This document shows positions 24,109 to 38,534 of a DNA stretch of 64,000 nucleotides, piece by piece. The first letter of the stretch is position 1. Each line of letters begins with the position of its first letter. The position numbers were made by a program, and so were the translations under genes. Source of the stretch: a virus; IMG/VR virus record IMGVR_UViG_3300045996_000464, positions 7,289 to 71,288 of that record. One strand, 5' to 3'. The notes under the pieces are model-generated. The model was not told where the DNA came from. It did not search any database and worked only from the letters and a program-made list of their open reading frames with translations.

Positions 24109-24202
24109 TAGAGTTAGTCCCGGTGTGTTGGCCCGTACAGCCAGAGTCCGGGCTTGACTAGGTTGATCGCCTAGGATTGCAGCATCAGAACCGCTAACTC
24201 GT

Positions 24203-24538: not shown

Positions 24539-24688
24539 CTAAGTCCTTTGTTGCTTGCCGTCCGTGAGGTATCTAGAACCGTAGCGGGTAGCTCAGGGTT
24601 AGATTCCCTGATAGGGCCACAGCGCCCTAGGCTGAGGGAACCACGCCCTTAAAGCGTGGTATTCTCGGCAACACTGGACTCCGGTTTA

Positions 24689-24761
24689 GCATCGGGCGCG
24701 TCCGGTAGATGCAGCCGAGCTTATATCTCGGCAAGAGCAGGTTCGACTCCTGACCGATGTA
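24689..24761 (+). tRNA. tRNA-Ile(TAT), non-canonical fold
   Basis: Acceptor GCATCGG/CCGATGT, 5-bp D-stem, 6-bp anticodon stem around CTTATAT. Confidence 0.8.
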
Positions 24762-24879
24762 CTCTAGTGTGGCTACGTTGTGCTTGCTGGCACCATGGCA
24801 GGAAACTGAGGCTGACCGTCCCTGGCGTAGATGCGCACCACACTGGAATATTAACACCCTCTCTGACGTTGGAGTAAGT

Positions 24880-25140
24880 ATGGAAAAGACACTGTACAAG
24901 TTCTACGCAGACTGGTGCGGGCCGTGCAAGATCATGAATCCAGTGGTTGACAAACTAGTAAAGACTCATGGTCTGGTGTTGGTGTCTGTCAACATTGACG
25001 ACGAACCACATCGCGCGCACGATCACGATGTACGATCCATTCCTACGCTCGTCTTAGAGCATGAGGATGGCAGCAAGACTCGCGTGGTAGGCGTAAGGCC
25101 GTACTATGCAACCGAGCAGGCGCTAGGCTTAACCGCTTAG
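24880..25140 (+). CDS. trxA: thioredoxin
   Basis: FYADWCGPCK active site and VRSIPT; GGAG RBS. Confidence 0.9.
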   Translation: MEKTLYKFYADWCGPCKIMNPVVDKLVKTHGLVLVSVNIDDEPHRAHDHDVRSIPTLVLEHEDGSKTRVVGVRPYYATEQALGLTA

Positions 25141-25152
25141 CGTTTGCACCAT

Positions 25153-25229
25153 AGACGTGTATACCCTCGCTCTGATAAGGCGTAGAAAGGTTAGCAGGTT
25201 ACACAGTGGTTCGAATCCACTCACGTCTA
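25153..25229 (+). tRNA. rearranged tRNA-Ile(GAT) with a D-loop-like segment 3' of the anticodon arm
   Basis: Perfect acceptor AGACGTG/CACGTCT plus A73, perfect T-arm, anticodon arm CGCT-CTGATAA-GGCG; no D-arm at the normal position. Confidence 0.7.
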
Positions 25230-25412
25230 CTGGCGAAAGCCAATGTCAGGGCAATGCCTATGGACGTAGCGCTAGCCGCGACCATGGAACCGAAGGTCAG
25301 ATTGGATCGTTCTTAGATGGCCGGACTTTTCCGGTCTGCCGTTCGTGAAAACTGAAACCGAAATCCATGAGATGCTAGTAGGCGCGGGTACTGGCACCCT
25401 TTTTAGAAAGAA

Positions 25413-25569
25413 TGGCAATGCAGTAAGTGATTACAATTGGAGAAAGTGGCCGAACCCAACGGTGACCACGAGAACGTCTTGACACAAAGTGGACGAAAGG
25501 CTTAATTAGCTGAGTAGGTAGAAGCGGGTCGAGCGAAAAGCGTGCGAGTTGATCGGTGACGCATTGCCA
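25413..25569 (+). ncRNA. candidate structured ncRNA upstream of tmRNA
   Basis: TGGCAATGC/GCATTGCCA closing helix; GAGAACGTCTT...GAGCGAAAA motif. Confidence 0.5.
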
Positions 25570-25576
25570 GTTTTAT

Positions 25577-25915
25577 GGGGATGAAATGGTATCGATTGCC
25601 AAGTAAATGGCATAGTTGCGAGCAGTGGTGACCGAGGCCACTTAAATCACGGTCAAACCAATAAATGCAGAGAACACTTCTGTAGCAGACACCTTCCCGG
25701 CCGAATGGGCTGAGGATCGTCTAGCCGTCGCTGCGTAAACGGATCAACAGAAACGCAGTCCAATGGGACACCCGCGAGGCCATCCTAAATACAACGGGTC
25801 TTGCTGATTAAGGCGGCTCTTGCAGCCGTAACGGGACGCGGCACCTTAGCCAGCTACGCTCGTAGACGCTAGTTGTTTCTTGTGTAAGACGCGAGTTCGA
25901 CTCTCGCCATCTCCA
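25577..25915 (+). ncRNA. ssrA: tmRNA; tag (A)AENTSVADTFPAEWAEDRLAVAA
   Basis: GGGGATG/CATCTCCA Ala-type acceptor, stemless D-loop, 3' T-arm; ATAAAT-GCA resume site at 25667; tag ends in AA-stop. Confidence 0.95.
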
Positions 25916-26027
25916 CTTAAGTGTATCGCCCGCCCAATGCCGGTTGCCGCTGGCTACGGGGCAACGGGTACGGCGGCAACCGTATTCACAATATCGGCTG
26001 TAGGCCGAGGCGGTAGGTTATGAATCA

Positions 26028-26100
26028 AGCGGGTTACCATTCTGGTGAAAACGGGAGTCTCATAAGCTCTCCCAGACGGGTTCGATCCCCGTACCCGCTC
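26028..26100 (+). tRNA. tRNA-Met(CAT)-like, atypical D-arm
   Basis: Acceptor AGCGGGT/ACCCGCT, loop CTCATAA, good T-arm. Confidence 0.75.
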
Positions 26101-26149
26101 CCTTCGTCGCCTATCCGGTTAGGCTAATAACCCCGGTGTGGCGGCTCCT

Positions 26150-26221
26150 GGCACCTTGACCGAGTGGTTTAGGTAGTGGACTGCAAACCCACGCACGCGA
26201 GTTCGATTCTCGCAGGTGCCT
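26150..26221 (+). tRNA. tRNA-Cys(GCA)
   Basis: Cloverleaf, U73. Confidence 0.93.
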
Positions 26222-26275
26222 TGTGGTAACCCGATCAAATGACAGTCGTCATTCCTAAACTATCGGGAGGTTGTC

Positions 26276-26587
26276 ATGACCGTATACTACAGCCCTGAGC
26301 AGTGGAACCTAGAGCCGTTCGCGGAACTAGAGTTGACTGAGCCGGACTATAGCTTCGATCTGGTGGTCGTGTGGCGACACAAGGACACTGGCGAGTTGTA
26401 CTTCGCTCAAGACTCAGGATGTTCGTGCCCTTCTCCGTTCGAAGACTTCACTAGCATCGATGATCTGATCCTCTTGTCTACGGACAACGATTACGATTGC
26501 TTGATGCGTGTGACGGATCGAGCGGACAACCGCGCGAATCGTGTGAGCTTTCTACGGAAGGTTCACGCGGCGATGCAGACTGGATGA
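26276..26587 (+). CDS. hypothetical protein (DSGCSCPSPFE motif)
   Basis: GGGAGG RBS, 103 aa. Confidence 0.75.
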   Translation: MTVYYSPEQWNLEPFAELELTEPDYSFDLVVVWRHKDTGELYFAQDSGCSCPSPFEDFTSIDDLILLSTDNDYDCLMRVTDRADNRANRVSFLRKVHAAMQTG

Positions 26588-26633
26588 TGGAACGGTTGCA
26601 TGTTCGACCCATGCGCGTCCGCTGCTCGCACAA

Positions 26634-26707
26634 GCCCCTCTAGCCCAACTGGCAGAGGCAGTCGGCTTAAACCCGACACAGTAACGGTTCGAATCCGTTG
26701 AGGGGTA
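26634..26707 (+). tRNA. tRNA-Leu(TAA), short variable loop
   Basis: Cloverleaf, loop CTTAAAC; resembles actinobacterial Leu(UAA). Confidence 0.92.
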
Positions 26708-26710
26708 CTA

Positions 26711-26806
26711 GCTGTACATTGTTGGTTCGAATCCAACTCCCGGCACTCACGCCGGGATAGCGAAGTGGCAGACGCGCCCTGGCTCATAACTGGGGAGACG
26801 TGCGGT
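26711..26806 (+). tRNA. circularly permuted tRNA(CAT), Met-like
   Basis: Order is T-arm (26721-37), acceptor 3' strand TCCCGGC+A, linker CTCAC, acceptor 5' strand GCCGGGA, D-arm, anticodon arm with CTCATAA, AGAC; flanks GCTGTAC/GTGCGGT are complementary. Confidence 0.75.
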
Positions 26807-26886
26807 GTAGTCGAAGAGGGAAGGGAACGAATGTCTAAGCCAATCGGGTGGATGCTCGATAGCGACACGAAAACCTCCTGAGACGA

Positions 26887-26970
26887 GCAGGACTGGTGGA
26901 ATTGGTATACACGGCAGTCTCAAAAACTGCTGCCTTCACTGGCTTGCGGGTTCGAGTCCCGCGTCCTGTA
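26887..26970 (+). tRNA. tRNA-Leu(CAA)
   Basis: Type II cloverleaf. Confidence 0.94.
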
Positions 26971-27020
26971 CTTAAGCGTAGGTGAAAGCCCTACTGACAG
27001 CCTGGAAAGACGGGCACCAT

Positions 27021-27093
27021 GCCTCCGTAAGCTTAATGGTAGAGCTACGGTCTTTTAAACCGAGGGTTGCGGGTTCGATTCCTGCCGGGGGCA
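27021..27093 (+). tRNA. tRNA-Lys(TTT)
   Basis: Cloverleaf, loop CTTTTAA. Confidence 0.9.
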
Positions 27094-27245
27094 CTACAGA
27101 AGGAAAGAGCAAACCGTGACTGAGGAAGCTAACGGACGGATAAACACGAAGGTCGGTCGCGCCGATCAAGCTTCCTGCCCTTAATGAGTGGGTACTCACG
27201 TCGCGTAGGCCGTCCTATATCGCACCTTCTGTTTTAGATTCACAT

Positions 27246-27319
27246 GGCCCATTAGCTCAGAGGAATAGAGTGTCGCGCTTCGAACGCGAAGGTCGCAGGT
27301 TCGATCCCTGCATGGGTCG
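27246..27319 (+). tRNA. tRNA-Arg(TCG)
   Basis: Cloverleaf, loop CTTCGAA. Confidence 0.92.
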
Positions 27320-27589
27320 CTGGTGCTAGTAACGATGAGCGGAACGTAGCGTTAGGGATGAGGTTGTGGAGTCATGACGAAACAGCCAAGAGACAGCCCG
27401 TTGATCGCGTGACAGTCGCTCGTAACTAGAGTGTGAGACAGGTATGTCCGCCACGGCCTGAAAAGGAAGGTGCCTCCACCGGACGCACGATTAAGTGCAG
27501 GGATCAGGAGGGTAAATGTAACGGAGCGCTCCGAGCGACGACAGCCCCCGTTTCTTGCACGTCACCAACTTTTGTGATAGGATGTACCT

Positions 27590-27769
27590 ATGGCACAAAA
27601 GAAGAACGTAGCTCAGACATCTGGCTGGCGCGGCAGGCAAGACAAGACTCGCCAGGACAGGATGCCAGCAGGGCAACGAGCGCGAGCAGTAGCACAGCAG
27701 GATCGCGTAAGTTGGATGAAGGAAACCAAGCCTACGTGCAGCAGGCATTGGACGTATCGCGAACATTGA
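27590..27769 (+). CDS. basic hypothetical protein (59 aa, probably leaderless)
   Basis: Hand-translated MAQKKNVAQ...; ATG 6 nt after TTGCAC-N17-TAGGAT. Confidence 0.5.
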   Translation: MAQKKNVAQTSGWRGRQDKTRQDRMPAGQRARAVAQQDRVSWMKETKPTCSRHWTYREH

Positions 27770-27783
27770 AAACTTAGAGAAGC

Positions 27784-27858
27784 CAGGATATAGCTCAGCT
27801 TGGACAGAGTGCGCCCCTCGGACGGGTGAGGCCGTAGGTTCGAATCCTACTATCCTGA
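27784..27858 (+). tRNA. tRNA-Pro(CGG)
   Basis: Cloverleaf, C1-G72, loop CTCGGAC. Confidence 0.92.
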
Positions 27859-27929
27859 TCAGATGTATGCCTAGAGTTGTCGGCTCTGTAGGCACCGGGT
27901 GGCCACCCGATTAAATTGAACCGTCACCA

Positions 27930-28005
27930 CAGTGTGTAGCTCAGTTTGGTTTAGAGTACTCGCCTTGGACGCGAGAGGCCGTTGGTTCGAATCCAACCAC
28001 ACTGA
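27930..28005 (+). tRNA. tRNA-Pro(TGG)
   Basis: Cloverleaf, loop CTTGGAC. Confidence 0.93.
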
Positions 28006-28098
28006 TAGCACTCTCCGAGGGCGCTATATGCGTTAAGAAGCGGAGGTTCTCAAAGTTGGGCGAAAGCTCTGCGGCGAAGAGTAGGAGAGGGCGATTCA

Positions 28099-28173
28099 CA
28101 GGATATAGCTCAGTCTGGTTAGAGTACTTCGTTGGGGACGAAGAAGCCGCAAGTTCGAATCTTGCTATCCTGA
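28099..28173 (+). tRNA. tRNA-Pro(GGG)
   Basis: Cloverleaf, loop TTGGGGA. Confidence 0.93.
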
Positions 28174-28202
28174 CTCGATTCTCCGTACACGGAATAGGTG
28201 AC

Positions 28203-28442
28203 ATGTGGGCGAGAATCTTCTACGGGCCGAGCGATTGGTTCATTCATCATACTAACGCACGACAGCGAGCAGCCATTAACTTTTGGTTGCTCTTCATCTG
28301 GATCATTCCAGGCGTCTTCATCTGGTACGTACTGCGAGATGCGCTGTGGTTCGTAGGCTTCATGAGCATTTACGCAATCTGGGTTAGCCACTTCGGTGGA
28401 TTCAGCGCAGAGACGCCCGTAGAAAACGAGAATGGCGACTAG
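28203..28442 (+). CDS. small membrane protein (2 TM)
   Basis: ATG after AGGTG; two hydrophobic Trp-rich segments. Confidence 0.65.
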   Translation: MWARIFYGPSDWFIHHTNARQRAAINFWLLFIWIIPGVFIWYVLRDALWFVGFMSIYAIWVSHFGGFSAETPVENENGD

Positions 28443-28717
28443 GCTACCAACCTAGGTCAGTACACAAGCCTCCCACTGAGATGTGGGGCATCGGGACGAT
28501 ACGCCCCTCAAAAGGCGGAACGTCTTGATGTTTGGTGGACAGGTCACCGGACGGTCTTGCCTTGGCAGGATCGAGCAGCCCGGTAAAGTCGCACTCAATC
28601 GACGGTTAGAGTGTTGACAGAATTATAGGTGCGCGGCCTAACGGAGTCTAGTGGTGAGGGCTTTTCTCCCCGTCTTCACGCAACACTGCCCTGTTCAGAA
28701 CAGCGGTGTTGCTCCAT

Positions 28718-28788
28718 TCCTGGATCGTCTAACGGTAGGACAGCGGCCTCTGAAGCCGTATATGGTGGTTCGAATCCATCTCCGGGAG
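28718..28788 (+). tRNA. tRNA-Gln(CTG)
   Basis: Cloverleaf, U1-A72. Confidence 0.93.
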
Positions 28789-28810
28789 CTAGCCGCAAGG
28801 CTGAATTGTT

Positions 28811-29068
28811 GGTGCTTCAAGTCAGCGACGAGTCAAGGCCGTGTAGGGCCGCTTAAGCAGAGCCGTCTGAGCGATCACCTATGCGGGTGTTCGCGGTCGG
28901 TACAACTCGTAGACACAACGAAGCCTAACCTCACAAGAGTAGGTGGTGGAGGGTACCTAACCTGGGTGAAATTAGAAAACATGCATGGGTACGAAGACCA
29001 TAGCGGCCTGGGGAAACCACTGAGGGTATGAGGGAAAGTCTGCTCACGGAGTGAGCGGAGCCAGCACC
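28811..29068 (+). ncRNA. candidate structured ncRNA (~260 nt)
   Basis: GGTGCT/AGCACC closure and internal hairpins; lies between two tRNAs. Confidence 0.4.
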
Positions 29069-29082
29069 GTGTAAGGTACAAA

Positions 29083-29160
29083 GCCAGTTCGCCCAAGGTG
29101 GGCACGGCGGCTGTAACCCGCCCGTCTCAGACACGATAGGTTCGATTCCTATAGCTGGCA
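29083..29160 (+). tRNA. tRNA-Tyr(GTA), compact D-arm
   Basis: Acceptor GCCAGTT/AGCTGGC, loop CTGTAAC, long variable arm, 5-nt D-loop. Confidence 0.85.
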
Positions 29161-29256
29161 TAGTTGTGAAAGCCGCACAGAAGGGCAAAGGGTGCTTATG
29201 CCCGGACAGGTCTTGCTAAGGAAAATGACACCCCTCTTTAGCGTCACAACTAACTC

Positions 29257-29297
29257 GCTAGTATAGTAGTCTGGCTGACTACACCCGGCTGTAACCC
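29257..29297 (+). pseudogene. orphan 5' half of a tRNA-Tyr(GTA)
   Basis: GCTAGTA, D-arm and CCCGG-CTGTAAC-CC, then breaks off just before the HNH ORF. Confidence 0.7.
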
Positions 29298-29303
29298 TTT
29301 GTT

Positions 29304-29669
29304 TTGGGTTACATCGCGCAGGTAATTGGCATGAGAGACAGAAATGCTTATGCGCGAGACGTTACGTACCGTAAACCGGGACGCAAAGAGTACATAATAG
29401 CGTCTAACAAAAAGCGGCGAGCAGCAACCGTACAAAGGTTGCGCGATTACAAGTTAGAACATGGTTGCGCTGAGTGCGGCTTTAATGACTGCGCTAGTGC
29501 CCTAGACTTCCATCACCGTAATGGTGACGAGAAGTTGTTTAGCCTCGGTTCAGCAGCAGCCCAGGATTATGGATGGGATAGGCTCGCAGCCGAGATAAAG
29601 AAATGCGATATTCTTTGCGCAAATCATCATCGCATGAAGAATTGCAAATGTCACGCTAGCATGGTGTAA
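29304..29669 (+). CDS. HNH endonuclease (homing-type)
   Basis: CAECG...LDFHH...EIKKCDILCANHHR motifs. Confidence 0.85.
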   Translation: MGYIAQVIGMRDRNAYARDVTYRKPGRKEYIIASNKKRRAATVQRLRDYKLEHGCAECGFNDCASALDFHHRNGDEKLFSLGSAAAQDYGWDRLAAEIKKCDILCANHHRMKNCKCHASMV

Positions 29670-29725
29670 AGGTTGCACACTGGTCTGTAAAACCACGAGA
29701 CTAGGTTCGATTCCTAGTGCTAGCA
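29655..29725 (+). tRNA. tRNA-Tyr(GTA), short variable loop
   Basis: Acceptor GCTAGCA/TGCTAGC, loop CTGTAAA; overlaps the HNH stop codon. Confidence 0.88.
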
Positions 29726-29792
29726 CTCGATGAGATGATGACAAAGCTATCGGTCGTCACGCCTATGACCTAGGTCGAAGAGGATAGCACGA

Positions 29793-29868
29793 TCCAAGGT
29801 TACTCTGTTGGCACGGGTGGCGCGGCTTTGAACCGTTGCAATCGTGGGTTCGATTCCTACCCTTGGAA
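29793..29868 (+). tRNA. tRNA-Gln(TTG)
   Basis: U1-A72, loop CTTTGAA, irregular anticodon stem. Confidence 0.82.
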
Positions 29869-30031
29869 CTGAGCAGGAGAACTACATGGCGATTGAGGGC
29901 CACGAACCCAAGAGCATCGTCTAACGGATGAACCTGCTGCGGGTGTACGGGTCGTGCCGTTACCCTAAGTTGCACGAAGAGGCGTTTGACGGTAGCCACA
30001 ACTTCGCTAACCCAGAGGGAAACCGTCGCTT

Positions 30032-30105
30032 GATGCTGTCGTCTAGAGGCTTAAGGCACCGCCCTGTCACGGCGGATATCGCGGGTTCGAATCCCGTCAG
30101 CATCG
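30032..30105 (+). tRNA. tRNA-Asp(GTC)
   Basis: Cloverleaf, G73. Confidence 0.93.
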
Positions 30106-30209
30106 TATGGGTCACAGTAGGTGATTCAGCCGGAATCGGCAGCTAGTCTTGTACCTCCCGTTGGGGTCGTGCCCAACAATAGGGTGCTGTACATGTGCCC
30201 CGGCAGCAA

Positions 30210-30282
30210 CGCCCCTTAGTTCATTGGTCTAGAACGCCCGCCTGTCCAGCGGAAGAGACGAGTTCGATTCTCGTAGGGGTGG
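30210..30282 (+). tRNA. tRNA-Asp(GTC), second copy
   Basis: Cloverleaf, loop CTGTCCA. Confidence 0.88.
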
Positions 30283-30495
30283 CTGAATTCACTACTAATG
30301 AATCGTGGTCTGTGCCAACTGTCATAGACGCCGAACATACACAAGAACACCTTGCCATCGCGCGGGGTGATAGGAAGGTAACAAGCCTTGTGAATCCCAA
30401 TTCCTGGCAAGGCTGGATTGGGAACCTTCCGAACAAGGGTTACGTCCAGCGCCCCATCCGTAGAGGGTGGTAAGCGGGGGTAGCGTGCCCACCAT

Positions 30496-30569
30496 ATCAG
30501 AGTCGTCTAATGGTCAAGGACACCAGACTTTCAATCTGGGCAATGCGGGTTCGACTCCCGTCTCTGATA
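30496..30569 (+). tRNA. tRNA-Glu(TTC)
   Basis: Cloverleaf, loop CTTTCAA. Confidence 0.93.
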
Positions 30570-30638
30570 CTAACTCGATGGATATCACATCGGGGGCGCA
30601 TGGGGTGCAATTCCCATTAGAAACATGCGCTTGCTTTA

Positions 30639-30712
30639 GCATCAGTAGCTCAGTGGTAGAGCATCCGCGACATGGTAGCGGAAGGTCATGGGTTCGATCC
30701 CCATCTGGCGCT
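30639..30712 (+). tRNA. tRNA-like gene with a 9-nt anticodon loop (GACATGGTA)
   Basis: Normal D and T arms; TCCGC/GCGGA stem; anticodon not assignable. Confidence 0.7.
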
Positions 30713-30830
30713 CTGGTGATACGTAACGGTGGCCTACGCTTCGGCGGACAATAGTGCGCCTAAGTCGTATCACCAACATTCAGGTCGGAGCTTACCCGAT
30801 ACACAGGAAATCCTATTGTTAGGAGCTACT

Positions 30831-30992
30831 ATGTATCACCGATCTGATGCCAGTCTCCGACGCATCGCAAAGAAGCGCGCGAAGAGACATGGTACTACGG
30901 CAAAGGACTTCAAACGGAAGGGCTTGCGGAGGCGCTGGCTCGTTCATCAGCTAGCCGGACATAACGGCTACAAGAACACCGATTTGCCGTAA
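30831..30992 (+). CDS. small basic protein (53 aa)
   Basis: AGGAG RBS before ATG; Arg/Lys-rich. Confidence 0.55.
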   Translation: MYHRSDASLRRIAKKRAKRHGTTAKDFKRKGLRRRWLVHQLAGHNGYKNTDLP

Positions 30993-31033
30993 ACGACAAG
31001 GTGGACTCCTAAACGTGCAGGGGAGTCCGTCAC

Positions 31034-31105
31034 GCCAGCTTAAGCCTAATGGTAGGGCACATCCCTTGTAAGGATGGGGTACGGGTTCGATTCCTGTAGT
31101 TGGCT
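31034..31105 (+). tRNA. tRNA-Thr(TGT)
   Basis: Cloverleaf, loop CTTGTAA. Confidence 0.92.
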
Positions 31106-31107
31106 CT

Positions 31108-31184
31108 GTGGATGAAGCTAAAGTGGCCGAAGCTCTGGGTTGTGATCCCAGCGAAAGCGGGTTCAAGTCCCGTCATCCACCCCA
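31108..31184 (+). tRNA. tRNA-His(GTG)
   Basis: Cloverleaf, C73, encoded CCA; T rather than G at position -1. Confidence 0.92.
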
Positions 31185-31185
31185 C

Positions 31186-31260
31186 GGTGAACGGGTAGCC
31201 TTTGGCGGCTACGGCGGGTTGTGATCCCGTTGGCAGCGAGTTCGATTCTCGTCGTTTACC
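31186..31260 (+). tRNA. tRNA-His(GTG), extended D-stem
   Basis: G-1:C73; GTAGCC/GGCTAC D-stem. Confidence 0.85.
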
Positions 31261-31265
31261 CTTAA

Positions 31266-31379
31266 GCGGACGTAGCTCAGTTGATGAGAGCATCGTGGCG
31301 TTAACCCACTCGCGCTAGAGCGCTCTAGGTGCGGTGGCTGTCACGAAGGTCGGAGGTTTGATTCCTCCCGTTCGCTCCA
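31266..31379 (+). ncRNA. tRNA-Gly-like body with a ~44-nt structured insert replacing the anticodon loop
   Basis: Acceptor GCGGACG/CGTTCGC+TCCA, D and T arms; TCGTG/CACGA stem extended into a long hairpin. Confidence 0.7.
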
Positions 31380-31445
31380 TGTTCCGGTGTGGTTCCACGG
31401 TTCTCACATCGGCCGCTGACAGACCCGTGGTTCCTGTCAGCATTC

Positions 31446-31518
31446 GCCTGACTGGTGCTAATGGATAGCATACGTCGTTGGTATCGACGGGGACAGAGTT
31501 CGATTCTCTGGTTAGGCT
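31446..31518 (+). tRNA. tRNA-Thr(GGT)
   Basis: Cloverleaf, loop TTGGTAT. Confidence 0.92.
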
Positions 31519-31612
31519 TGTGACCCACTACATGGAGGCGCACACATGCGCAACTCACTTGCCCAAACCATGTAGGTAGCAATAGTGCTACCTCATCGTT
31601 TGGGAGGTAAAG

Positions 31613-31798
31613 TTGGCCAGAAAGTCTCAGGCCGAAATTGATCTTGGTTCTCTTGGCAAGGGCAAGAAGAAGGACAAGAAGAACAAGAATCGCAAGTACG
31701 GGCGTAACCTCAAGAAGTGCGCCAACTACCGCTTGCGCGTCGGTAAGCCCCTCGGAAGAGGCGTATCCGGCAACAAGCGCGGCAAGAGCCACGTTTAA
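31613..31798 (+). CDS. small highly basic protein (61 aa)
   Basis: GGGAGGT RBS before TTG; Lys/Arg-rich. Confidence 0.65.
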   Translation: MARKSQAEIDLGSLGKGKKKDKKNKNRKYGRNLKKCANYRLRVGKPLGRGVSGNKRGKSHV

Positions 31799-31802
31799 AT
31801 AT

Positions 31803-31877
31803 GGGAGTAGTCAAGGTTCAAATCCTTGCCCTGGCCCCACAAGGGTCGGGAGGTAGTGTTAGCGGGCGCACGCTCCC
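31803..31877 (+). ncRNA. YrlA-like / permuted tRNA-like RNA
   Basis: GGGAG/CTCCC closing stem encloses T-arm, then acceptor-like hairpin, then D-arm. Confidence 0.7.
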
Positions 31878-31925
31878 CTACATCATCGGGTATGGATTCC
31901 GCCCGAGGCCCAAAAGGGATCACCC

Positions 31926-31998
31926 GCCAATCAAGCTTAAGTGGCTAAGCGCCTGTTTCGTAATCAGGAGGTTCTCGGTTCGAATCCGGGGATTGGCT
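31926..31998 (+). tRNA. tRNA-Thr(CGT)
   Basis: Cloverleaf, loop TTCGTAA. Confidence 0.88.
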
Positions 31999-32039
31999 TA
32001 CACTCCTAAATCAAAACCCACCATTGTGTACGGAGACGC

Positions 32040-32291
32040 ATGAAGAAACTACTACTCGTTCCGGTCATGGCCCTCGCGCTGTTCGTTGGCGCAGCGGCAG
32101 CACCGGCTAAGACCCCGGTGTTCGGCACCGAGGATTCATGTGCGGCAAGCTTCTCAATCGAGAATGCTCAAGCATGTGGCTCTAACCCGACACCCTATAT
32201 CGTTCACTGTAGCTATAACTCATCCACTGGCCACTACTTCGTCGGCTGGTCGGACGGACGCTGGTACTACAACCCGAACGGCTGCTGGTAG
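32040..32291 (+). CDS. small secreted Cys-containing protein
   Basis: GGAG RBS; MKK-hydrophobic-AxA signal peptide; 4 Cys. Confidence 0.7.
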   Translation: MKKLLLVPVMALALFVGAAAAPAKTPVFGTEDSCAASFSIENAQACGSNPTPYIVHCSYNSSTGHYFVGWSDGRWYYNPNGCW

Positions 32292-32477
32292 AAACACGGT
32301 GGGCCACCAGCCGTTCAAATGGTGGCTATAAGGTTGGTTTCAATGAAAAAGAACACTGGAATCGCAGCTTACAGGCTGATCCTGCGGAAACGGCCATGGT
32401 ACCGTAGATGGTACGCCCTGACGCTCTATTTTTACTACCGTACTAAGATCAGGCTCACATCTCACCTGTAATGGGTG

Positions 32478-32552
32478 ATGAGTACGATCCTAATCCTAGT
32501 AGTTCTGGCCGTAATCCTGGTATGGGTTCTCTGGCCAGACATTCGGAGGTAA
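32478..32552 (+). CDS. 24-aa single-TM microprotein
   Basis: Hand-translated MSTILILVVLAVILVWVLWPDIRR. Confidence 0.45.
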   Translation: MSTILILVVLAVILVWVLWPDIRR

Positions 32553-32555
32553 GAA

Positions 32556-32663
32556 ATGTCAAAGGGTGACAAGGTAGAAGTACAGGCAGCGCAGAAGGGT
32601 AGCCCCAAGAAGGGTTCTGGCTGGCGCAACGTAGGCAAGAAGCTACGCCGAAAGAAGAAGTAA
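32556..32663 (+). CDS. 35-aa basic microprotein
   Basis: GGAGGT RBS; MSKGDKV...KKLRRKKK; TAATG overlap with the next gene. Confidence 0.6.
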   Translation: MSKGDKVEVQAAQKGSPKKGSGWRNVGKKLRRKKK

Positions 32664-32914
32664 TGAGCGAGCTAGAAGAGACAGCCAAGCGGCTAGCTAA
32701 GGCTAGCGAAACAATCTATTCCAAGGCGGATGAAATCAAGGCTGTCGCGGATCAGTTGCGTTCGGACGTAGATGTTCTTACGGAACGACTCGACGCGGTT
32801 GAAAGTGATGCAACTCACGTTGCAGAGAATCTAACCGCAACTAGTGAGAAGGTTGAGGGGCAGCAAGTTAAGCAGGATGATCGTCTAGACACTCTAGAGA
32901 ACGGCAACACATAG
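32663..32914 (+). CDS. coiled-coil hypothetical protein
   Basis: 83 aa with heptad-like pattern. Confidence 0.65.
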   Translation: MSELEETAKRLAKASETIYSKADEIKAVADQLRSDVDVLTERLDAVESDATHVAENLTATSEKVEGQQVKQDDRLDTLENGNT

Positions 32915-32985
32915 GCTATTAACTCAGTTGGGAGAGTACCTCGTTGACATCGAGGAAGTCACTGGTTCAAGTCCAGTATAGCCTA
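32913..32985 (+). tRNA. tRNA-Val(GAC)
   Basis: Cloverleaf, loop TTGACAT. Confidence 0.94.
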
Positions 32986-32990
32986 CTCAT

Positions 32991-33062
32991 GGGGAATTAG
33001 TGCTAACGGGAACACATCGGTTTTGCATACCGAAATTAAGGGTTCGACTCCCTTATTCTCCA
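32991..33062 (+). tRNA. tRNA-Ala(TGC), second copy
   Basis: Cloverleaf, G3:U70. Confidence 0.92.
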
Positions 33063-33082
33063 CTTTGTGCTATACTTAGAGT

Positions 33083-33226
33083 ATGACCGAGAAGATGAAA
33101 GTCAAAGGTTCCAGCGAGGTTGTCCAGGTCACCGGCAAGAGCGGCGATTATTACCGCGTCTACGTCAAGGGTGTGTCTGGTTACTATCACGACTGGTACC
33201 ACAAAGATCAGTTGACTCCCGCATAA
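33083..33226 (+). CDS. 47-aa SH3-like microprotein (probably leaderless)
   Basis: Hand-translated MTEKMKVKG...WYHKDQLTPA; ATG 6 nt after TGC-TATACT. Confidence 0.55.
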   Translation: MTEKMKVKGSSEVVQVTGKSGDYYRVYVKGVSGYYHDWYHKDQLTPA

Positions 33227-33295
33227 GTAGCTCAGATTGGCCAGAGCAGGTCGTTGCCAACGATCAGGTCGTGGGTTCGAATCCCATCTTATGCT
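33221..33295 (+). tRNA. tRNA-Gly(GCC)
   Basis: Cloverleaf, U73. Confidence 0.93.
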
Positions 33296-33345
33296 TAGCT
33301 CGTTCGTGGGTGAGGGTACCCAATATGACCATGTTCGGGCTTTCA

Positions 33346-33420
33346 AGTCTCATTAGTGTTAGCGGTTCAGCACTACAGTCTTCCAAACTGTAAGCATCGG
33401 TTCGAATCCGATATGAGACT
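33346..33420 (+). tRNA. tRNA-Gly(TCC)
   Basis: Cloverleaf, loop CTTCCAA. Confidence 0.9.
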
Positions 33421-33561
33421 CTTCCACGGACAGTCCTCGCAGGGTATCCTAGGGCAGTTAAACACACTGCGACCATTCGGCCCGAGACGGAGCTAGGTTG
33501 ACGGTATCAGAATGCAGAACATCTAGGGTCGTGTTTACTGATGAGGCTTAACCGTGGATAT

Positions 33562-33634
33562 GGTTGCGTAGCTCAGAGGATAGAGTGCCTCCCTGCGAAG
33601 GAGGAAGCCGCTGGTTCGATTCCAGCCGTGACCA
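33562..33634 (+). tRNA. tRNA-Arg(GCG)
   Basis: Cloverleaf, loop CTGCGAA. Confidence 0.92.
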
Positions 33635-33766
33635 CTAGACCGTATGTTCCAGATTGCCGCCGTTGACGAACGGGTCTGCCCCTGGACTTGAGAATCCAAC
33701 TCTTGCATCTAACGTGGATGTAAGCAAGGGTTCCAGACGGTCTTTCATGTACAACCCGGAGAAAGC

Positions 33767-33955
33767 ATGTACAAGGACGCAAACAAGTTGACGGTGCGCG
33801 AAGGATACGAATGGGCGCTAGCTGCCGCAACTGCTGCCGAGCATGGCAGTGGCTCTAGCAACACCCACGTTCCTGCTGCCTATCAGGCTGCATATGACGC
33901 TGGGTACAACTATGGCACCGCTGTGTTGAAGCCCATGAAGCGCAACACTCACTAA
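33767..33955 (+). CDS. hypothetical protein
   Basis: GGAG RBS, 62 aa. Confidence 0.55.
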   Translation: MYKDANKLTVREGYEWALAAATAAEHGSGSSNTHVPAAYQAAYDAGYNYGTAVLKPMKRNTH

Positions 33956-33957
33956 TT

Positions 33958-34257
33958 TGTAGCACAGACTGCGGCTGTCAGATTCAATCAACTGGCAGAG
34001 GAAAGTCCGGGCACCTGCTTGGCGGGAATTCAACCGCGCAAGCAAACGTTCACACGAGCCTAGGAGATGACCTTAACTTTTCGAAGTTAAGATGAATCGC
34101 TTAACTAGTAAGGTGGCGGGGTGCGACCCCAAGACGTGCGGCTGAGATGCTGACACAGGTAGGGGGCAGGTAGACGTGAGTCTCCCGCGATAAATAGCGA
34201 GTTAGATCGTAGTCCTTCCCCGCAAGGGGTTGACAGAACCCGGCTTATCGTGCTACA
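33958..34257 (+). ncRNA. rnpB: RNase P RNA (compact, divergent)
   Basis: P4 signatures GAGGAAAGTCCGGGC and ACAGAACCCGGCTTAT; P1 TGTAGCAC/GTGCTACA; P2 GACTGCGG/TCGTAGTC; P3 and P19 hairpins. Confidence 0.9.
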
Positions 34258-34266
34258 CTGTATTGC

Positions 34267-34461
34267 ATGAAGTTACAGCGTGAAACTGCGCCGACGCCCG
34301 ATGGCGAAATCCCGGAGTGGGAGCAGCTTTACTGCTGGTCATGTTCCGCCAACAAGCATCACCGTCTGGTCACGATGATGGATTCAGATCATGGCACAGA
34401 GGCTCTACATCAGTGCATGAATTGCAACACTGTTTCACAAGCGTTTTACCCTGCTACGTAG
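34267..34461 (+). CDS. zinc-ribbon hypothetical protein
   Basis: Two CxxC pairs; follows TTGACA-N18-TACACT. Confidence 0.6.
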   Translation: MKLQRETAPTPDGEIPEWEQLYCWSCSANKHHRLVTMMDSDHGTEALHQCMNCNTVSQAFYPAT

Positions 34462-34525
34462 CCAAGTGGTCTAAGGCAGCGGCCTCATAAGCCGCCACTC
34501 GTCAGTTCGAATCTGACCGTAGCGA
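34452..34525 (+). tRNA. tRNA-Met/Ile2(CAT)
   Basis: Cloverleaf, loop CTCATAA. Confidence 0.9.
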
Positions 34526-34526
34526 T

Positions 34527-34712
34527 ATGGCTAAAATAAACCAAGCAGCAGAGAAGCGGCTCAAGAACGAAGAGTACGCCAAGAAGTTCGAAAAGAAGAA
34601 GGAACCACAGGTTCGTGGCAAGAAGGAAAAGCCGAAGCCGAAGTTCGCTAATTGGTGTCGGGCTAAGGGGCATCCAGCATCTTGTCAGGTAGACGCATGT
34701 CCTCAGCCGTAA
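34527..34712 (+). CDS. small basic Cys/His protein
   Basis: 61-aa ORF directly after a tRNA. Confidence 0.5.
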   Translation: MAKINQAAEKRLKNEEYAKKFEKKKEPQVRGKKEKPKPKFANWCRAKGHPASCQVDACPQP

Positions 34713-34799
34713 AACATAATCATCTCACTAGGGATATCAAGCGCCCTGGTGTTTGCCCCAAGTGCGACGAGTATCACAAACGTCCAGGCGGGCAGCTAA

Positions 34800-34871
34800 G
34801 TCCTGGTAGCTCAGAGGAAGAGCTTTCGCCTCCTAAGCGAATGGTCGCTGGTTCGAATCCAGTTCAGGACG
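34800..34871 (+). tRNA. tRNA-Arg(CCT)
   Basis: Cloverleaf, loop CTCCTAA. Confidence 0.93.
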
Positions 34872-34984
34872 TTATGAAATGGTATTGTAGGCGTTGCGGG
34901 TACGTCATGAATGGTATAGCTCAAACGTGGCGCGGTGATGGCCCGTGGTGTCCCACACCAAAATGTAAGGGTATGAAACTAACG

Positions 34985-35058
34985 CGCGGGATGGAGCAGT
35001 CAGGTAGCTCGTCAGCCTCATAAGCTGAAGGTCGTAGGTTCAATTCCTACTCCCGCTT
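34985..35058 (+). tRNA. initiator-like tRNA-fMet(CAT)
   Basis: CGCGGGATGGAGCAG body, C1 x U72 mismatch, TTCAA T-loop. Confidence 0.9.
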
Positions 35059-35103
35059 CTAACCTCCTAAGTGTGGATTGTGACCACAACCGAGGGAGGT
35101 AGC

Positions 35104-35319
35104 ATGGCAGCAGTAAAGAAGGTCGTAGTTGGTACGGATGACCTTGTAGGTTGCAAGGTTATCAGCGTGGACTACAACGAGATGACTCTAGAGAAGGATG
35201 GCAGGCAGTTCTATGTCGAGCTAGAGGAAGAGGCGTACTGGAACACCATGTGTGACGGTTGTTGCGGCTGTGGTAGCGCACCAACTTACATGGTAGCTCG
35301 CGCCGATGCAGTTGAGTGA
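35104..35319 (+). CDS. hypothetical protein
   Basis: GGGAGGT RBS; CDGCCGC motif. Confidence 0.65.
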   Translation: MAAVKKVVVGTDDLVGCKVISVDYNEMTLEKDGRQFYVELEEEAYWNTMCDGCCGCGSAPTYMVARADAVE

Positions 35320-35335: not shown

Positions 35336-35360
35336 AGCCCTCCTTCGGGAGGGCTTTTGT
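35336..35360 (+). terminator. intrinsic terminator closing the RNA cluster
   Basis: AGCCCTCC-TTCG-GGAGGGCT followed by Ts. Confidence 0.8.
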
Positions 35361-35370
35361 GTTTCTAGGC

Positions 35371-35399
35371 TTGACAACAGTTCGATCCTAAGCTACACT
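35371..35399 (+). promoter_or_regulatory. sigma-70-type promoter for the sortase operon
   Basis: TTGACA-N17-TACACT. Confidence 0.75.
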
Positions 35400-35433
35400 T
35401 AGAGGAAGTGTAATTCTAAAGAAAGGCGCAAAG

Positions 35434-36045
35434 TTGCGTAGATTTCTAGCAATCCTCGCGTTCGCTGTCGTAGCTGCTGTGGGCGTGGGAACGTCAGTCG
35501 CGGTAGCAAACGGCCCGGATACAACCACCATCTGTCATCTTAAGCCTGGGTTCCAGAACGGCCCTGGTGCAGAGTTCATTCAGATGGAAGTGCCCAATTC
35601 GGCTCTTGATGCACATCTTGCTCACGGCGATACTCTCGGCTCGTGCGGCGGCGGCGGCACAGTCACTGTCACTGTTCCGGGTGGGACGACTACGGTTACT
35701 GTTCCGGGCGAGACTGTCACTGTTCCTGGTGAGACGGTAACGCTTCCAGGTGAAACGGTCACGGTTCCAAGTCAGACAGTAACACTTCCGGGCCAGACGG
35801 TAACAGTAGAGAAGACAGTTGACCCAGTATCTGCGGTTACGGTGCCTGGGCCTACTGTAACAGTCACTGTTCCTGGGCCTGTCGGAGTGCCTACGCCGGA
35901 TCGACCTGTTGAGGTTCGCACGGTCGTTAAGAAGGCGAAGACGGTCATCAAGTGGAAGACGCGAACGGTCGTTAAGACCAAGATCGTTAATCGCTGCTTG
36001 CCACCTACACCGCCCCGTCCTCGTGAAGTCCCGTACACTCCGTAA
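35434..36045 (+). CDS. secreted surface protein with TVT(V/L)PG repeats; putative sortase substrate
   Basis: Signal peptide; TTICH...AHLAHGD..GSC domain; 7-aa repeats; C-terminal VPYTP. Confidence 0.7.
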   Translation: MRRFLAILAFAVVAAVGVGTSVAVANGPDTTTICHLKPGFQNGPGAEFIQMEVPNSALDAHLAHGDTLGSCGGGGTVTVTVPGGTTTVTVPGETVTVPGETVTLPGETVTVPSQTVTLPGQTVTVEKTVDPVSAVTVPGPTVTVTVPGPVGVPTPDRPVEVRTVVKKAKTVIKWKTRTVVKTKIVNRCLPPTPPRPREVPYTP

Positions 36046-36421
36046 CATTCTGATTCTGGGGGTGGTCAGCCTTGCGCTGGCTGCCTCCGCTTCAGCGTAC
36101 CCAAATACGATCTACATCCCCAAAATCGGCCTTTACGCCGCTTTAGCACCATCGCTCGACACTGGCCCGTGGTTGTACTGGCAGGACGAGGACACAGTAG
36201 CCATCGCAGGGCACCGTACAACGCATTCTAAGCCCTTCTCAGCAATAGATAGGCTTAGCCGGGGTGATCTTATCAGAACGCGCGGAAAGAACTACAGAGT
36301 GGCTAAGATTGTAGTGATTCGACCGTGGGAAACATGGGTATTGAATTGGCAGGGGCTTGTCCTCTCTGCGTGTACGCCCAAAGGCTCTGCTTCTCATCGC
36401 ATAGTTGTGCTGGCACGATAG
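36023..36421 (+). CDS. sortase (compact, class E/F-like)
   Basis: N-terminal hydrophobic anchor; IAGHRTTH, GD.I, LSACTP and RIVV give the His-Cys-Arg triad. Confidence 0.85.
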   Translation: MKSRTLRNILILGVVSLALAASASAYPNTIYIPKIGLYAALAPSLDTGPWLYWQDEDTVAIAGHRTTHSKPFSAIDRLSRGDLIRTRGKNYRVAKIVVIRPWETWVLNWQGLVLSACTPKGSASHRIVVLAR

Positions 36422-36449: not shown

Positions 36450-36632
36450 GTGGGGCGTATGATTGGCCCTCCTGATCCGTATGAGATTGACACGTACCAC
36501 AAAGAGCAGAAGCGGCTGCAAGAGCTAAAGGTGGCCGCTGGTATCTGTCGCTGCATCCATTGCTCTGAGAAGGTTGATCGAGATGAGTACACATGGCCTG
36601 AGTGCGCTATGTGCTATGCTTTCTGTGATTGA
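36450..36632 (+). CDS. small Cys-rich protein
   Basis: CxxC pairs. Confidence 0.5.
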   Translation: MGRMIGPPDPYEIDTYHKEQKRLQELKVAAGICRCIHCSEKVDRDEYTWPECAMCYAFCD

Positions 36633-36731: not shown

Positions 36732-38534
36732 ATGAGTGAGTTCGAACCAAGCGGCTTAGGCCGTACTATTTTTTCTGACAGGTATGCACGTACACCTGAA
36801 GAGACATGGCAAGAGGCGTGTGACCGAGTGGCCACGCATGTAGCACAGGCAGAAGAGAACGGAAAGGTCAAGAAATACGGTGACAGATTCCGAGAGCAGC
36901 TTTCTAGCGGTAGATTTAACCCTGGTGGACGCATTTGGTATGGTGCTGGCCGTCCAAAGGCTCAGCTTCTCAATTGCTTCGTTGTACCTACAGGCGACTC
37001 CCGCGAGGCTTGGGGGAAGACCGCCAATGACACCATCATCATCAGCGGCCTCATGGGTGGAGTCGGCATTAACCTATCCCCTATCCGTTATCGAGGCGCG
37101 GCGATTAAAGGGACAGGCGGTGAGGCTACTGGCGCAGTATCATTTGGCCAGATGATCAATGCCATTGGTAACACCATCCGTGGCGGTGGTGGCCGACGCA
37201 TGGCTTTGATGCTGTCGTTGGAGTTAAACCATCCTGACGTTGAAGAGTTCCTTAAAGTCAAGCTAGACCTAAAGGAGTTGAACAACGCCAACATCTCGCT
37301 CGTCATTCCAGAGAACATGCCCACTGAGCGGTTCCAAGAGATGGTCGAGAACAACGAAGACATCGAGCTAGAGTTCAATGGCGTCCCGAGCGGCAAGACG
37401 ATCAGCGCGGGTTGGCTCTGGGGTATGCTCGTAGAGAATGCCTACAAGAGCGGCGAGCCGGGTATCCTAAACGGCTATCTGGCCAACAAGATGAGCAACC
37501 TTTGGTATCACAAGAACCTCATCTGCACCAATCCGTGTGGAGAAATCTGGTTGGAAGAGTACGGCTGCTGCGATCTTGGCGCGCTCGTACTTCCACGCTT
37601 CGTAGAGGATGGCAAGTTCAACTGGGACGCATTCGATGAGAGTATCCGTCTCGGTGTGCGCTTCCTTGATAACGTCCTCTCCGTCAATCACTATCCGTTA
37701 GCTGAAATTAAGCAGAACTGCGAAGATGTGCGACGTATCGGCCTGGGAGTGATGGGCCTACATACGATGCTACTTGAGCTAGGGATGAAGTATGACTCTC
37801 CCGAGGCATTCAAGTTCGTGGAGAGACTCTTCAACACCATGAAGAACACTGCTTACGACGCTAGCATCAACCTTGCTATCGAGAAGGGCGCATTCCCGGC
37901 CTATGATCCCAGGTTCCTAGAGAGCGGTTTCGTGAAGACGCTCAAGAGAGGCATCAGGAACAAGATCAAGGAGCATGGAATCCGCAACTGCGCCCTCATG
38001 ACGATTGCGCCAACGGGTACAACCTCTATGGTCGCAGGGGTGTCTTCAGGCATCGAGCCTATTGCAGCCCCGGTCTACTGGCGCAACTATTTCAAGCCCA
38101 CGGGCGAGCTAGAACAAGAGCTAGTCGTAGAGGATGCATTCTACAAGTATCCTGAGCTAGTTCAATCAGCTATCGACGTGAGCCTGCGCGGCCATTTTGA
38201 GATGCAGAAGATTGTCCAGAAGCACATCGACAACGCTGTGAGCAAGACCATCAACATGGCTGAGGATGCCGACATTGAAGAGTTCGGCAAGCTATGGCTT
38301 GAGTACCTGCCGCACTGCAAGGGCACAACGGTGTACCGATTCGGCAGTCGTGAGAATGAGCCGATCAATCCTGTGCCCCGAGAGCAATGGAGTGAGGTAG
38401 TTCGCGGCACTGAGGTACACGATCAGATGACAGTTGAAGAATTCATGGCCATCGATTGTGTCGGTGGTGTTTGTGAGGTTCCGCAGGTGTGGGGTCAACC
38501 TCCTGTCCCTGAGAAGATGATCGACGTAGTATAA
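36732..38534 (+). CDS. nrdJ: class II (adenosylcobalamin-dependent) ribonucleotide reductase
   Basis: PGGR, LLNCFV, TNPCGE, IAPTGT, SSGIEP and C-terminal CVGGVCE; no NrdB-like gene adjacent. Confidence 0.88.
   Translation: MSEFEPSGLGRTIFSDRYARTPEETWQEACDRVATHVAQAEENGKVKKYGDRFREQLSSGRFNPGGRIWYGAGRPKAQLLNCFVVPTGDSREAWGKTANDTIIISGLMGGVGINLSPIRYRGAAIKGTGGEATGAVSFGQMINAIGNTIRGGGGRRMALMLSLELNHPDVEEFLKVKLDLKELNNANISLVIPENMPTERFQEMVENNEDIELEFNGVPSGKTISAGWLWGMLVENAYKSGEPGILNGYLANKMSNLWYHKNLICTNPCGEIWLEEYGCCDLGALVLPRFVEDGKFNWDAFDESIRLGVRFLDNVLSVNHYPLAEIKQNCEDVRRIGLGVMGLHTMLLELGMKYDSPEAFKFVERLFNTMKNTAYDASINLAIEKGAFPAYDPRFLESGFVKTLKRGIRNKIKEHGIRNCALMTIAPTGTTSMVAGVSSGIEPIAAPVYWRNYFKPTGELEQELVVEDAFYKYPELVQSAIDVSLRGHFEMQKIVQKHIDNAVSKTINMAEDADIEEFGKLWLEYLPHCKGTTVYRFGSRENEPINPVPREQWSEVVRGTEVHDQMTVEEFMAIDCVGGVCEVPQVWGQPPVPEKMIDVV

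Follow-up and report, generated by a model that had tools for sequence, protein, structure and literature searches.

The stretch of DNA analysed here, called the window throughout, comprises 64,000 nucleotides (positions 7,289 to 71,288 of the IMG/VR virus record IMGVR_UViG_3300045996_000464, a record of 71,288 bases with a completeness rating of 48%) and carries a pair of overlapping genes, one for a secreted stalk protein, open reading frame (ORF) A, and one for a very short sortase, which we call the mini-sortase (Table 1). The window holds genes for baseplate, portal, terminase, DNA polymerase, primase, helicase, a UvsX-like protein and ribonucleotide reductase (RNR); this gene set together with 45 tRNA genes and one tmRNA gene therefore identifies the virus as a large, tRNA-rich, myovirus-like phage, in which the pair is flanked by the tRNA array on one side and the RNR gene on the other. 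Sortases provide a textbook route by which Gram-positive bacteria display proteins on their surface, and they are widely used for protein ligation. An earlier note, made from the letters of this region, had proposed that the phage encodes a sortase together with its own putative substrate, and the present analysis follows up that proposal.

Table 1. Features in and around the gene pair; positions count from the first letter of the window, residues from the start of the respective protein.
Feature	Position	Strand	Length or residues	Remarks
Array of 45 tRNA genes and 1 tmRNA gene	20469-35059	+		
Small Cys-rich ORF	34267-34461		64 aa	CxxC-type pairs; among the last tRNAs
Small Cys-rich ORF	35071-35319		82 aa	CxxC-type pairs and CDGCCGCG; upstream of the gene pair
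Terminator-like hairpin and T-run	35336-35365 (hairpin 35336-35355)	+		Closes the small gene 35071-35319
Sigma-70-like promoter, TTGACA-17-TACACT (candidate)	35371-35399	+		10/12 consensus matches; 35 nt before the ORF A start
ORF A, secreted stalk protein and putative sortase substrate	35434-36045	+	203 aa	TTG start; GAAAGG 8 nt upstream
Signal peptide of ORF A	35434-35508	+	1-25	MRRF, hydrophobic core, VAVA; predicted cleavage before the next residue, N
Small Cys/His (ICH) domain	35521-35646	+	30-71	From alignment and structural model
TVTxPG repeat stalk	35659-35880	+	76-149	Repeats in sequence
Basic segment, VEVRTVVKKAKTVIKWKTRTVVKTKIVNRC	35902-36003	+	157-190	Matches Lys-rich tracts of cellular substrates
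Terminal pentapeptide VPYTP, then stop	36028-36042	+		Proposed sorting motif; predicted cleavage after Thr202
Overlap of ORF A end and sortase start	36023-36045	+	23 nt	Shine-Dalgarno absent; putative translational coupling
Mini-sortase	36023-36421	+	132 aa	GTG start; N-terminal membrane helix/signal (5-20) and ~105-aa catalytic barrel (28-132)
Catalytic His64 (AGHR)	36212-36214	+		Invariant in alignment of 26
Catalytic Cys117 (LSAC)	36371-36373	+		Invariant in alignment of 26
Catalytic Arg126	36398-36400	+		Invariant in alignment of 26
Small Cys-rich ORF	36450-36632		60 aa	CxxC-type pairs; downstream of the gene pair
RNR gene	36732-38534			

ORF A has the build described in the earlier note: a signal peptide leads into a small Cys/His domain and a TVTxPG stalk, after which come a basic segment and, as the last five residues, VPYTP. 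Its N-terminus is hydrophobic (19-residue Kyte-Doolittle mean 2.39) and is a helix at residues 2-25 in the AlphaFold2 (AF2) model. Secretion is of the Sec type; a twin-arginine (Tat) signal was rejected, as the RR pair is not kept in homologues. Within the Cys/His domain, referred to as the ICH domain, residues C34, H35, H61 and H64 are invariant across an alignment of 12 homologues, and the model gives a beta-hairpin and a helix with block means of the predicted local distance difference test (pLDDT) of 74-94 over residues 31-70; the domain may bind metal. The full-length model has a mean pLDDT of 54.6 and is usable in the N-terminal helix and residues ~30-70, while the low pLDDT of the stalk, in whose coding region Tandem Repeats Finder reports 21/42-nucleotide repeats at 35692-35805, is consistent with an extended or disordered chain. 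No Pfam or NCBIfam family covers ORF A, and its PHROG match is marginal (E 0.045). Residues 150-203 contain 13 Lys or Arg against 3 Asp or Glu, and the protein closes with ...RPREVPYTP-stop, an end that the metagenome homologue P0117 shares exactly (REVPYTP). ORF A is the sole open frame of the window with such an end, and a canonical LPXTG substrate elsewhere was rejected as a candidate, there being none among the 206 open frames of the window. A second motif-like pentapeptide, LPPTP (36004-36018), lies eight residues before the terminal VPYTP and is absent from P0117.

The 132-residue protein encoded downstream is a minimal sortase with the His, Cys and Arg that had been read from the sequence before, and its gene does overlap that of the secreted protein. 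It scores 46 bits against the sortase superfamily model PF04203 of Pfam (46.3 in the genome search), well above the cut-off of 26.6, and H64, C117 and R126 are invariant across 26 aligned homologues. The AF2 model built with this alignment has a pLDDT of 86.9, exceeding 90 for residues 28-132, and contains one helix (residues 5-20) and eight strands (within residues 29-131), the first strand following the helix after only ~8 residues. In a Foldseek search the model matched sortases (classes C, E, A and D) at probability 1.00, and 110 matches had E <= 0.001. As modelled, the mini-sortase is a complete sortase barrel in ~105 residues. A longer, 170-residue version starting from a TTG at 35909 was rejected as unlikely, as the homologues start at the position corresponding to 36023.

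Six sortase classes, A to F, are distinguished in the available portions of two published accounts (PMC8703055, PMC5148588). The best NCBIfam class for the mini-sortase is E (NF033747), at 34.3 bits against a cut-off of 160, and two relatives introduced below, the cellular L003 and the viral L084, reach 36.5 and 48.3 bits on the same model. For classes C, D, F and GN (NF033745, NF033746/NF058671, NF033748 and TIGR03784), whose cut-offs are 140-166 bits, the window protein scores no more than 27.3 bits and its relatives no more than 35.9; neither a class A nor a class B model is among the NCBIfam matches, and PHROGs has no family for the window sortase. The search against sortase classes that the earlier note had suggested thus places the protein in the superfamily and in none of the classes: by these scores the mini-sortase belongs to no curated class. 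Among 1.84 billion representative proteins, a profile search gave only 14 clusters at E <= 1e-30, all of 126-152 amino acids, beyond which lies a continuum of ordinary-length sortases.

The same pairing occurs in cells. A word-index search found 95 homologues of ~135 amino acids, one of them named Gaiellaceae, and the best matches, taken as one genome per species, gave eight loci (L002-L009) with an identity of 46-54% over the full length, from records assigned to Gaiellaceae, Thermoleophilia or uncultured Actinomycetes. There are 13 distinct cellular mini-sortase loci in total, and 12 of these encode a Lys-rich tract, [A/V]LPFTP and a TAG stop just upstream of or overlapping the sortase gene; the thirteenth, L166, has broken frames and an unreadable tail and is counted as the one miss. 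Frames are intact in 11 of the 12, the remaining one (L002) having a frame break further upstream and yet keeping the tail ...KPRALPFTP-stop. Without exception, the 11 intact loci share with the window an overlap of exactly 23 nucleotides between the upstream gene and the sortase gene, whose start codon is GTG (nine loci), TTG (one) or ATG (one). We define in this analysis a mini-sortase/end-tag cassette of Gaiellaceae-type genomes by a sortase of ~130-150 amino acids, the 23-nucleotide overlap and a basic tract followed by xP(F/Y)TP, a type that comprises the window and the 11 intact loci. The passenger parts of the substrates vary, being an AHH...C domain with CPNIxGxQ repeats in some and a Cys-rich head on a Thr-rich stalk in others, while that of L008 has an ICH-type domain like that of ORF A; nine substrates matched no Pfam or NCBIfam family, the only hit being MAP_0585 at 22-23 bits against a cut-off of 170. 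Judged by these loci, it is the tail and not the passenger domain that travels with the enzyme. The question raised in the earlier note, whether homologous pairs keep a terminal (L/V)PxT(P/G), can be answered in the affirmative for 12 of the 13 cellular loci and for two other viral contigs, which have xPxT-type ends. A different conserved tail was observed in Solirubrobacterales-type loci (L010-L081), where 43 of 72 loci with an ordinary-length sortase have an ORF on the same strand, often of ~600 amino acids, that ends in ...YAGPGSLGGT(E/K)SALRR and, where it is the nearest upstream, stops a few hundred bases before the sortase match.

The pentapeptide itself is what is conserved. Its 15 nucleotides occur in nine DNA versions among the 11 intact loci, all of them synonymous for LPFTP, and these nine versions give nine different peptides in the sortase frame. 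Because the changes in the overlap are synonymous for LPFTP and non-synonymous for the sortase, selection acts on the substrate frame of the overlap, and the comparison indicates purifying selection on the pentapeptide. A sister clade of slightly longer sortases (Shimodaira-Hasegawa-like approximate likelihood ratio test, SH-aLRT, 97), made up of one Gaiellaceae genome (L016) and two viral contigs (L082 and L084), pairs with secreted proteins encoded upstream, each with a basic tract, whose ends read RAPFTL, QAPYTL and PPHTLGLGL, respectively; in L082 and L084 the sortase starts without overlapping the substrate end, and in L016 its frame is broken and the start cannot be placed. Across the 15 aligned tails only the Pro and Thr of xPxTx are invariant, and all 14 loci compared have basic tails, with 5-19 Lys or Arg and 0-3 Asp or Glu in the last 45 residues. 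Five genomes were searched for P[F/Y]TP followed by TAG, and each has exactly one such site, beside the sortase, with none before TAA or TGA in the same genomes; in three of the five the mini-sortase is the only PF04203 match. Taken together, the synonymous variation, the ends of the sister clade and the single site per genome lead us to regard the pentapeptide, from its pattern of change, as conserved for its own sake; the upstream secreted protein is very probably the dedicated substrate of the enzyme. That the two genes are mere neighbours and not enzyme and substrate, with something else preserving the pentapeptide (the overlapping start region, for example, or some other binding), would be suggested by the position of the motif inside the overlap with the sortase start; this is very improbable in our view, since the variation in the overlap spares the substrate and not the sortase, the sister clade keeps xP[F/Y/H]TL without an overlap, the motif resembles LPxT, and tail and enzyme stay together when passenger domains change.

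Compared with the LPXTG pentapeptide, VPYTP of the window and LPFTP of the cellular loci keep P and T, with Pro or, in the sister clade, Leu following the Thr and not Gly. In LPXTG-type signals a hydrophobic segment follows the motif and a charged tail follows that segment; here the motif is the last five residues and the basic tract precedes it. The substrate had already been described as lacking a downstream transmembrane helix and basic tail, and the hydropathy profile bears this out, with a maximum 19-residue value of 0.05 in the last 60 residues; likewise, the idea of a non-canonical sorting signal holds for a motif at the very end, a basic tract before it and no hydrophobic segment. Ten ICH relatives (P0097, P0098, P0101, P0104, P0109, P0116, P0122, P0129, P0139 and P0147) share the ICH domain, the TVT stalk and basic strands, and in place of the sortase tag they close with a small Cys-rich knot whose last residues are G-x-G (as in ...CPPGTALFNGTCQAVVRGKG). 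Because other members of the family end in this knot, ORF A looks like an ICH-family member that has been fitted with an end tag.

The host is likely a Gaiellaceae-type actinobacterium, because the closest cellular sortases are in Gaiellaceae or Thermoleophilia records and the ICH domain is enriched in that family: it is matched in 59 of 201 genomes of the Gaiellaceae-type family but in only 5 of 301 genomes sampled across the phylum, for which fewer candidates per genome were scored (the counts include the unpublished genomes G266, G299, G197 and G172 of the family and G439 of the phylum sample). The only described species of Gaiellaceae stains Gram-negative and has a thin peptidoglycan layer, according to the part of the source available (PMC6741124). 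The premise of the earlier note, that sortases anchor proteins to monoderm peptidoglycan, thus suits a likely host group that is actinobacterial and sits less easily with the staining and thin wall of its one described species. In the literature searched, no paper on sortases of Thermoleophilia was found, nor any that treats LPFTP as a sorting motif, the uses found being unrelated ones.

Relatives of the cassette in viruses are few and distant. Neither megablast of the region nor tblastn of both proteins found a match among 50,697 GenBank phage records, and a single-sequence scan of IMG/VR gave no relative; a profile scan of IMG/VR yielded four loci, of which L082 and L084 are of the end-tag type. 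Of the other two, L083 was set aside as an ordinary sortase, the protein encoded upstream of it closing with a hydrophobic stretch and then a basic tail, and L085 as a Cys-less sortase-like protein; in L085 (963-3082) this protein of 128 amino acids has a lipoprotein-type signal and LVLQTSVP in place of the catalytic Cys, and it follows a protein of 578 amino acids with LPPAG, a hydrophobic segment and an RR tail. In L084 (65% G+C; 833-5802) the substrate (2857-3996) and the sortase (4001-4444) lie between two family-2 glycosyltransferase genes, with a transglycosylase-like gene and a terminase C-terminal domain nearby, and because the cassette sits amid glycosyltransferase and transglycosylase-like genes these surroundings would fit an envelope-directed role. 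In L082 (49% G+C; 63-3605) the cassette is followed by small ORFs and a split B12-type RNR gene, an order of cassette and then RNR that is common to L082 and the window, though the two phages are not close. A metagenome scan with the five closest sequences returned two distant loci only, at 23-27% identity. In the tree the phage sortase groups with the metagenome proteins P0001-P0004 (SH-aLRT 94; 62-71% identity), three of which share with it an amino-acid make-up unlike that of cellular sequences; these proteins may also be phage-borne.

The earlier note had assigned the pair its own promoter. The candidate site matches the consensus well and is well placed, after the terminator-like hairpin (an 8-pair stem with 6 G-C pairs, then TTTGTGTTTC) and before ORF A; in the scanned 1.9 kb there are two promoter-like sites against 1.3 +/- 1.1 in shuffled sequence, and because this count is near the shuffle level the promoter is plausible by position and not by statistics. 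It bears on whether the cassette is an inert passenger, a decaying insertion of host origin that is silent in infection. The pair is absent within 5 kb of the RNR gene in 41 viral loci related through that gene, the closest of which (L088) has a different gene order, as might be expected of such an insertion, yet both frames are intact and the catalytic residues kept, the G+C content of the cassette (0.54-0.57) matches the 0.53 of the phage and not the 0.70 of the Gaiellaceae locus L002, a promoter-like site of its own stands after a terminator, and the sortase groups with P0001-P0004. Moreover, identical pieces of the region are present in runs from three soil metagenome studies, and one of these may be its source. 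We regard an inert passenger as highly improbable. Contigs from four soil runs contained no variants, being identical short pieces, and no RNA datasets are listed for the stretch.

Several known systems invite comparison. Class E, represented by SrtE1 of Streptomyces coelicolor (PDB 5CUW) and SrtE of Thermobifida fusca (PDB 9IOK), has the same fold, His/Cys/Arg triad and AGHR(T/N)TH sequence and comes from the same phylum; SrtE1 is the best PDB sequence match of the mini-sortase (E 2.9e-4), and the class E structures give Foldseek template modelling (TM) scores of 0.62-0.68 normalised to the query. However, the solved chains have 160-170 residues against a catalytic domain of ~105 amino acids here, with almost no linker after the membrane helix. 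The class E sorting motif is LAxTG, and in that class a hydrophobic segment and charged tail follow the motif, whereas here xP(F/Y)T(P/L) stands at the end after a basic tract. Dedicated sortases of classes B and D resemble the pair in that one enzyme lies beside one substrate with a variant pentapeptide, class B serving NPQTN proteins and class D LPNTA proteins; their substrates keep the hydrophobic segment and charged tail and their enzymes are full-sized, and on the class D models the proteins compared here score 12.9-16.7 bits against a cut-off of 165.

Phages are also known to carry sortases. Twenty-four sortase B genes of gut huge phages are reported in a preprint of 24 October 2026, which also describes the canonical sorting-signal architecture of a hydrophobic segment and a charged tail (bioRxiv 10.64898/2026.10.24.761521; this and the following statements apply to the accessible part of its text). 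As in the window, the sortase is phage-borne, the product of the gene directly upstream has a signal peptide and is taken as the substrate, and the proposed role is display of a phage protein on the host surface; the gut enzymes are of class B, closest to those of Bacillota and from animal-gut phages of >200 kb, whereas here an unclassified mini-sortase is found in a soil phage with a probable Gaiellaceae host, and their substrates have a canonical PXTG with hydrophobic segment and positive tail, in contrast to the tail-less signal and overlapping genes of the window. A phage-borne sortase/substrate module as such is thus already known, and what is new here is the unclassified minimal enzyme and the end-of-protein sorting signal.

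From these comparisons we think it probable, if some way from settled, that the window carries a self-contained two-gene sortase/substrate cassette with a non-canonical end-of-protein sorting signal, which serves display on the infected cell by a soil phage of a likely Gaiellaceae-type host. We propose that the overlapping genes are translationally coupled, the 23-nucleotide overlap and the missing Shine-Dalgarno tying translation of the enzyme to that of the substrate. After export, the polybasic tract would keep the C-terminal end close to the anionic surface of membrane or wall, replacing the hydrophobic segment and charged tail; the membrane-proximal sortase would bind xP(F/Y)T and its Cys117 would attack the Thr carbonyl, whereupon the terminal residue would leave, Pro in the window and Leu or LGLGL in the sister clade. 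The protein would then be passed to an envelope nucleophile, most likely a peptidoglycan precursor, so that the infected cell would display a stalk protein of the phage's choosing. Wall attachment of the ORF A protein is what the gene pair would suggest, and receptor masking or superinfection exclusion, the roles put forward in the earlier note, is a guess; exclusion of other phages, adhesion and metal binding are all candidates for what the display achieves.

The nucleophile could be a different one. Class C pilin sortases (PDB 4D7W, 6IXZ) are the top structural matches of the mini-sortase, and a Lys-rich region always stands before the motif and could supply a nucleophile, as it would if the enzyme were a pilin-type polymerase or cross-linker that joins Thr202 to a Lys-tract side chain of another copy or of another surface protein and so builds fibres or a mesh; one substrate per genome would also agree with this. 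We judge such a role unlikely, as neither a lid segment nor a pilin-type fold or pilin gene cluster is seen, the class C score is 25.7 bits against a cut-off of 160 and lies below that of class E, the passenger domains are unrelated to each other, and the basic tract can be accounted for by a part in retention or in spanning the wall. Where a nucleophile is lacking, sortases catalyse a slow hydrolysis, and the lack of a membrane-spanning retention element in the substrate could speak for an enzyme that trims only, hydrolysing the tail and so releasing or maturing the protein without transpeptidation, the product being secreted. Such trimming seems unlikely to us, however, because it is hard to see why a dedicated enzyme would be kept to take off one residue, all three residues of the transpeptidase triad are conserved, and the barrel is modelled very close to the membrane helix.

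A number of observations weigh against a display cassette and must be set beside those that favour it. The substrate has no hydrophobic segment in its last 60 residues, and in canonical systems loss of the hydrophobic retention segment results in secretion; to our knowledge, cleavage between Thr and Pro with a leaving group of one residue has no precedent among sortases. The residues after the Thr vary by clade (P, L or LGLGL), by which the extreme end is not a strict requirement, the sortase start is not preceded by a Shine-Dalgarno sequence, and the N-terminus of the enzyme contains ASA followed by Y, where signal peptidase could cut and free it. Even in the host family the mini-sortase is rare, at 6 of 201 genomes, and samples of the order (2 of 151 genomes) and of the class (2 of 301) yielded no more than two of these six (the unpublished G065, with a match of ordinary length only, is part of the order-sample tally at E <= 1e-20). 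Neither the GenBank phages nor IMG/VR, the RNR-related loci or the metagenome scan yielded a close phage relative carrying the cassette, and the support for the cassette comes from sequence comparison and predicted structures throughout. A bolder view, which we hold only tentatively and would not put quite at even chances, is that the display cassette represents a new sortase class with a tail-less signal (a polybasic tract and xP(F/Y)T(P/L) at the C-terminus, possibly with a one-residue leaving group and with no membrane-spanning segment), native to the thin-walled Gaiellaceae and captured at least twice by soil phages, to graft a Cys/His stalk protein of the phage's choosing onto the infected cell.

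If a display cassette of this kind is confirmed, an enzyme of ~105 residues and a five-residue end tag without a hydrophobic anchor would revise the notion of a sorting signal, and predictors that look for a motif plus a helix would miss such substrates. It would offer protein engineering a smaller enzyme and a shorter tag, and it would provide an initial entry point to envelope biology in Gaiellaceae, a group with a single described species, which the metagenome runs and record titles place in soil. Phage-borne sortases, so far only of class B and in gut phages as far as the available text of the October 2026 preprint goes (its supplements may list others), would then also be known from soil phages that infect Actinobacteria, with an enzyme of another type. 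This would suggest that remodelling of the host surface by phages is wider than thought.

Around the cassette lie three small Cys-rich ORFs (Table 1); those at 35071-35319 and 36450-36632 have no Pfam match, the sole PHROG match being a marginal one of the second (E 0.2). The tmRNA within the tRNA array encodes the tag AENTSVADTFPAEWAEDRLAVAA, and the array as a whole has tRNAs for most amino acids; the phage has 53% G+C, against likely hosts near 70%.

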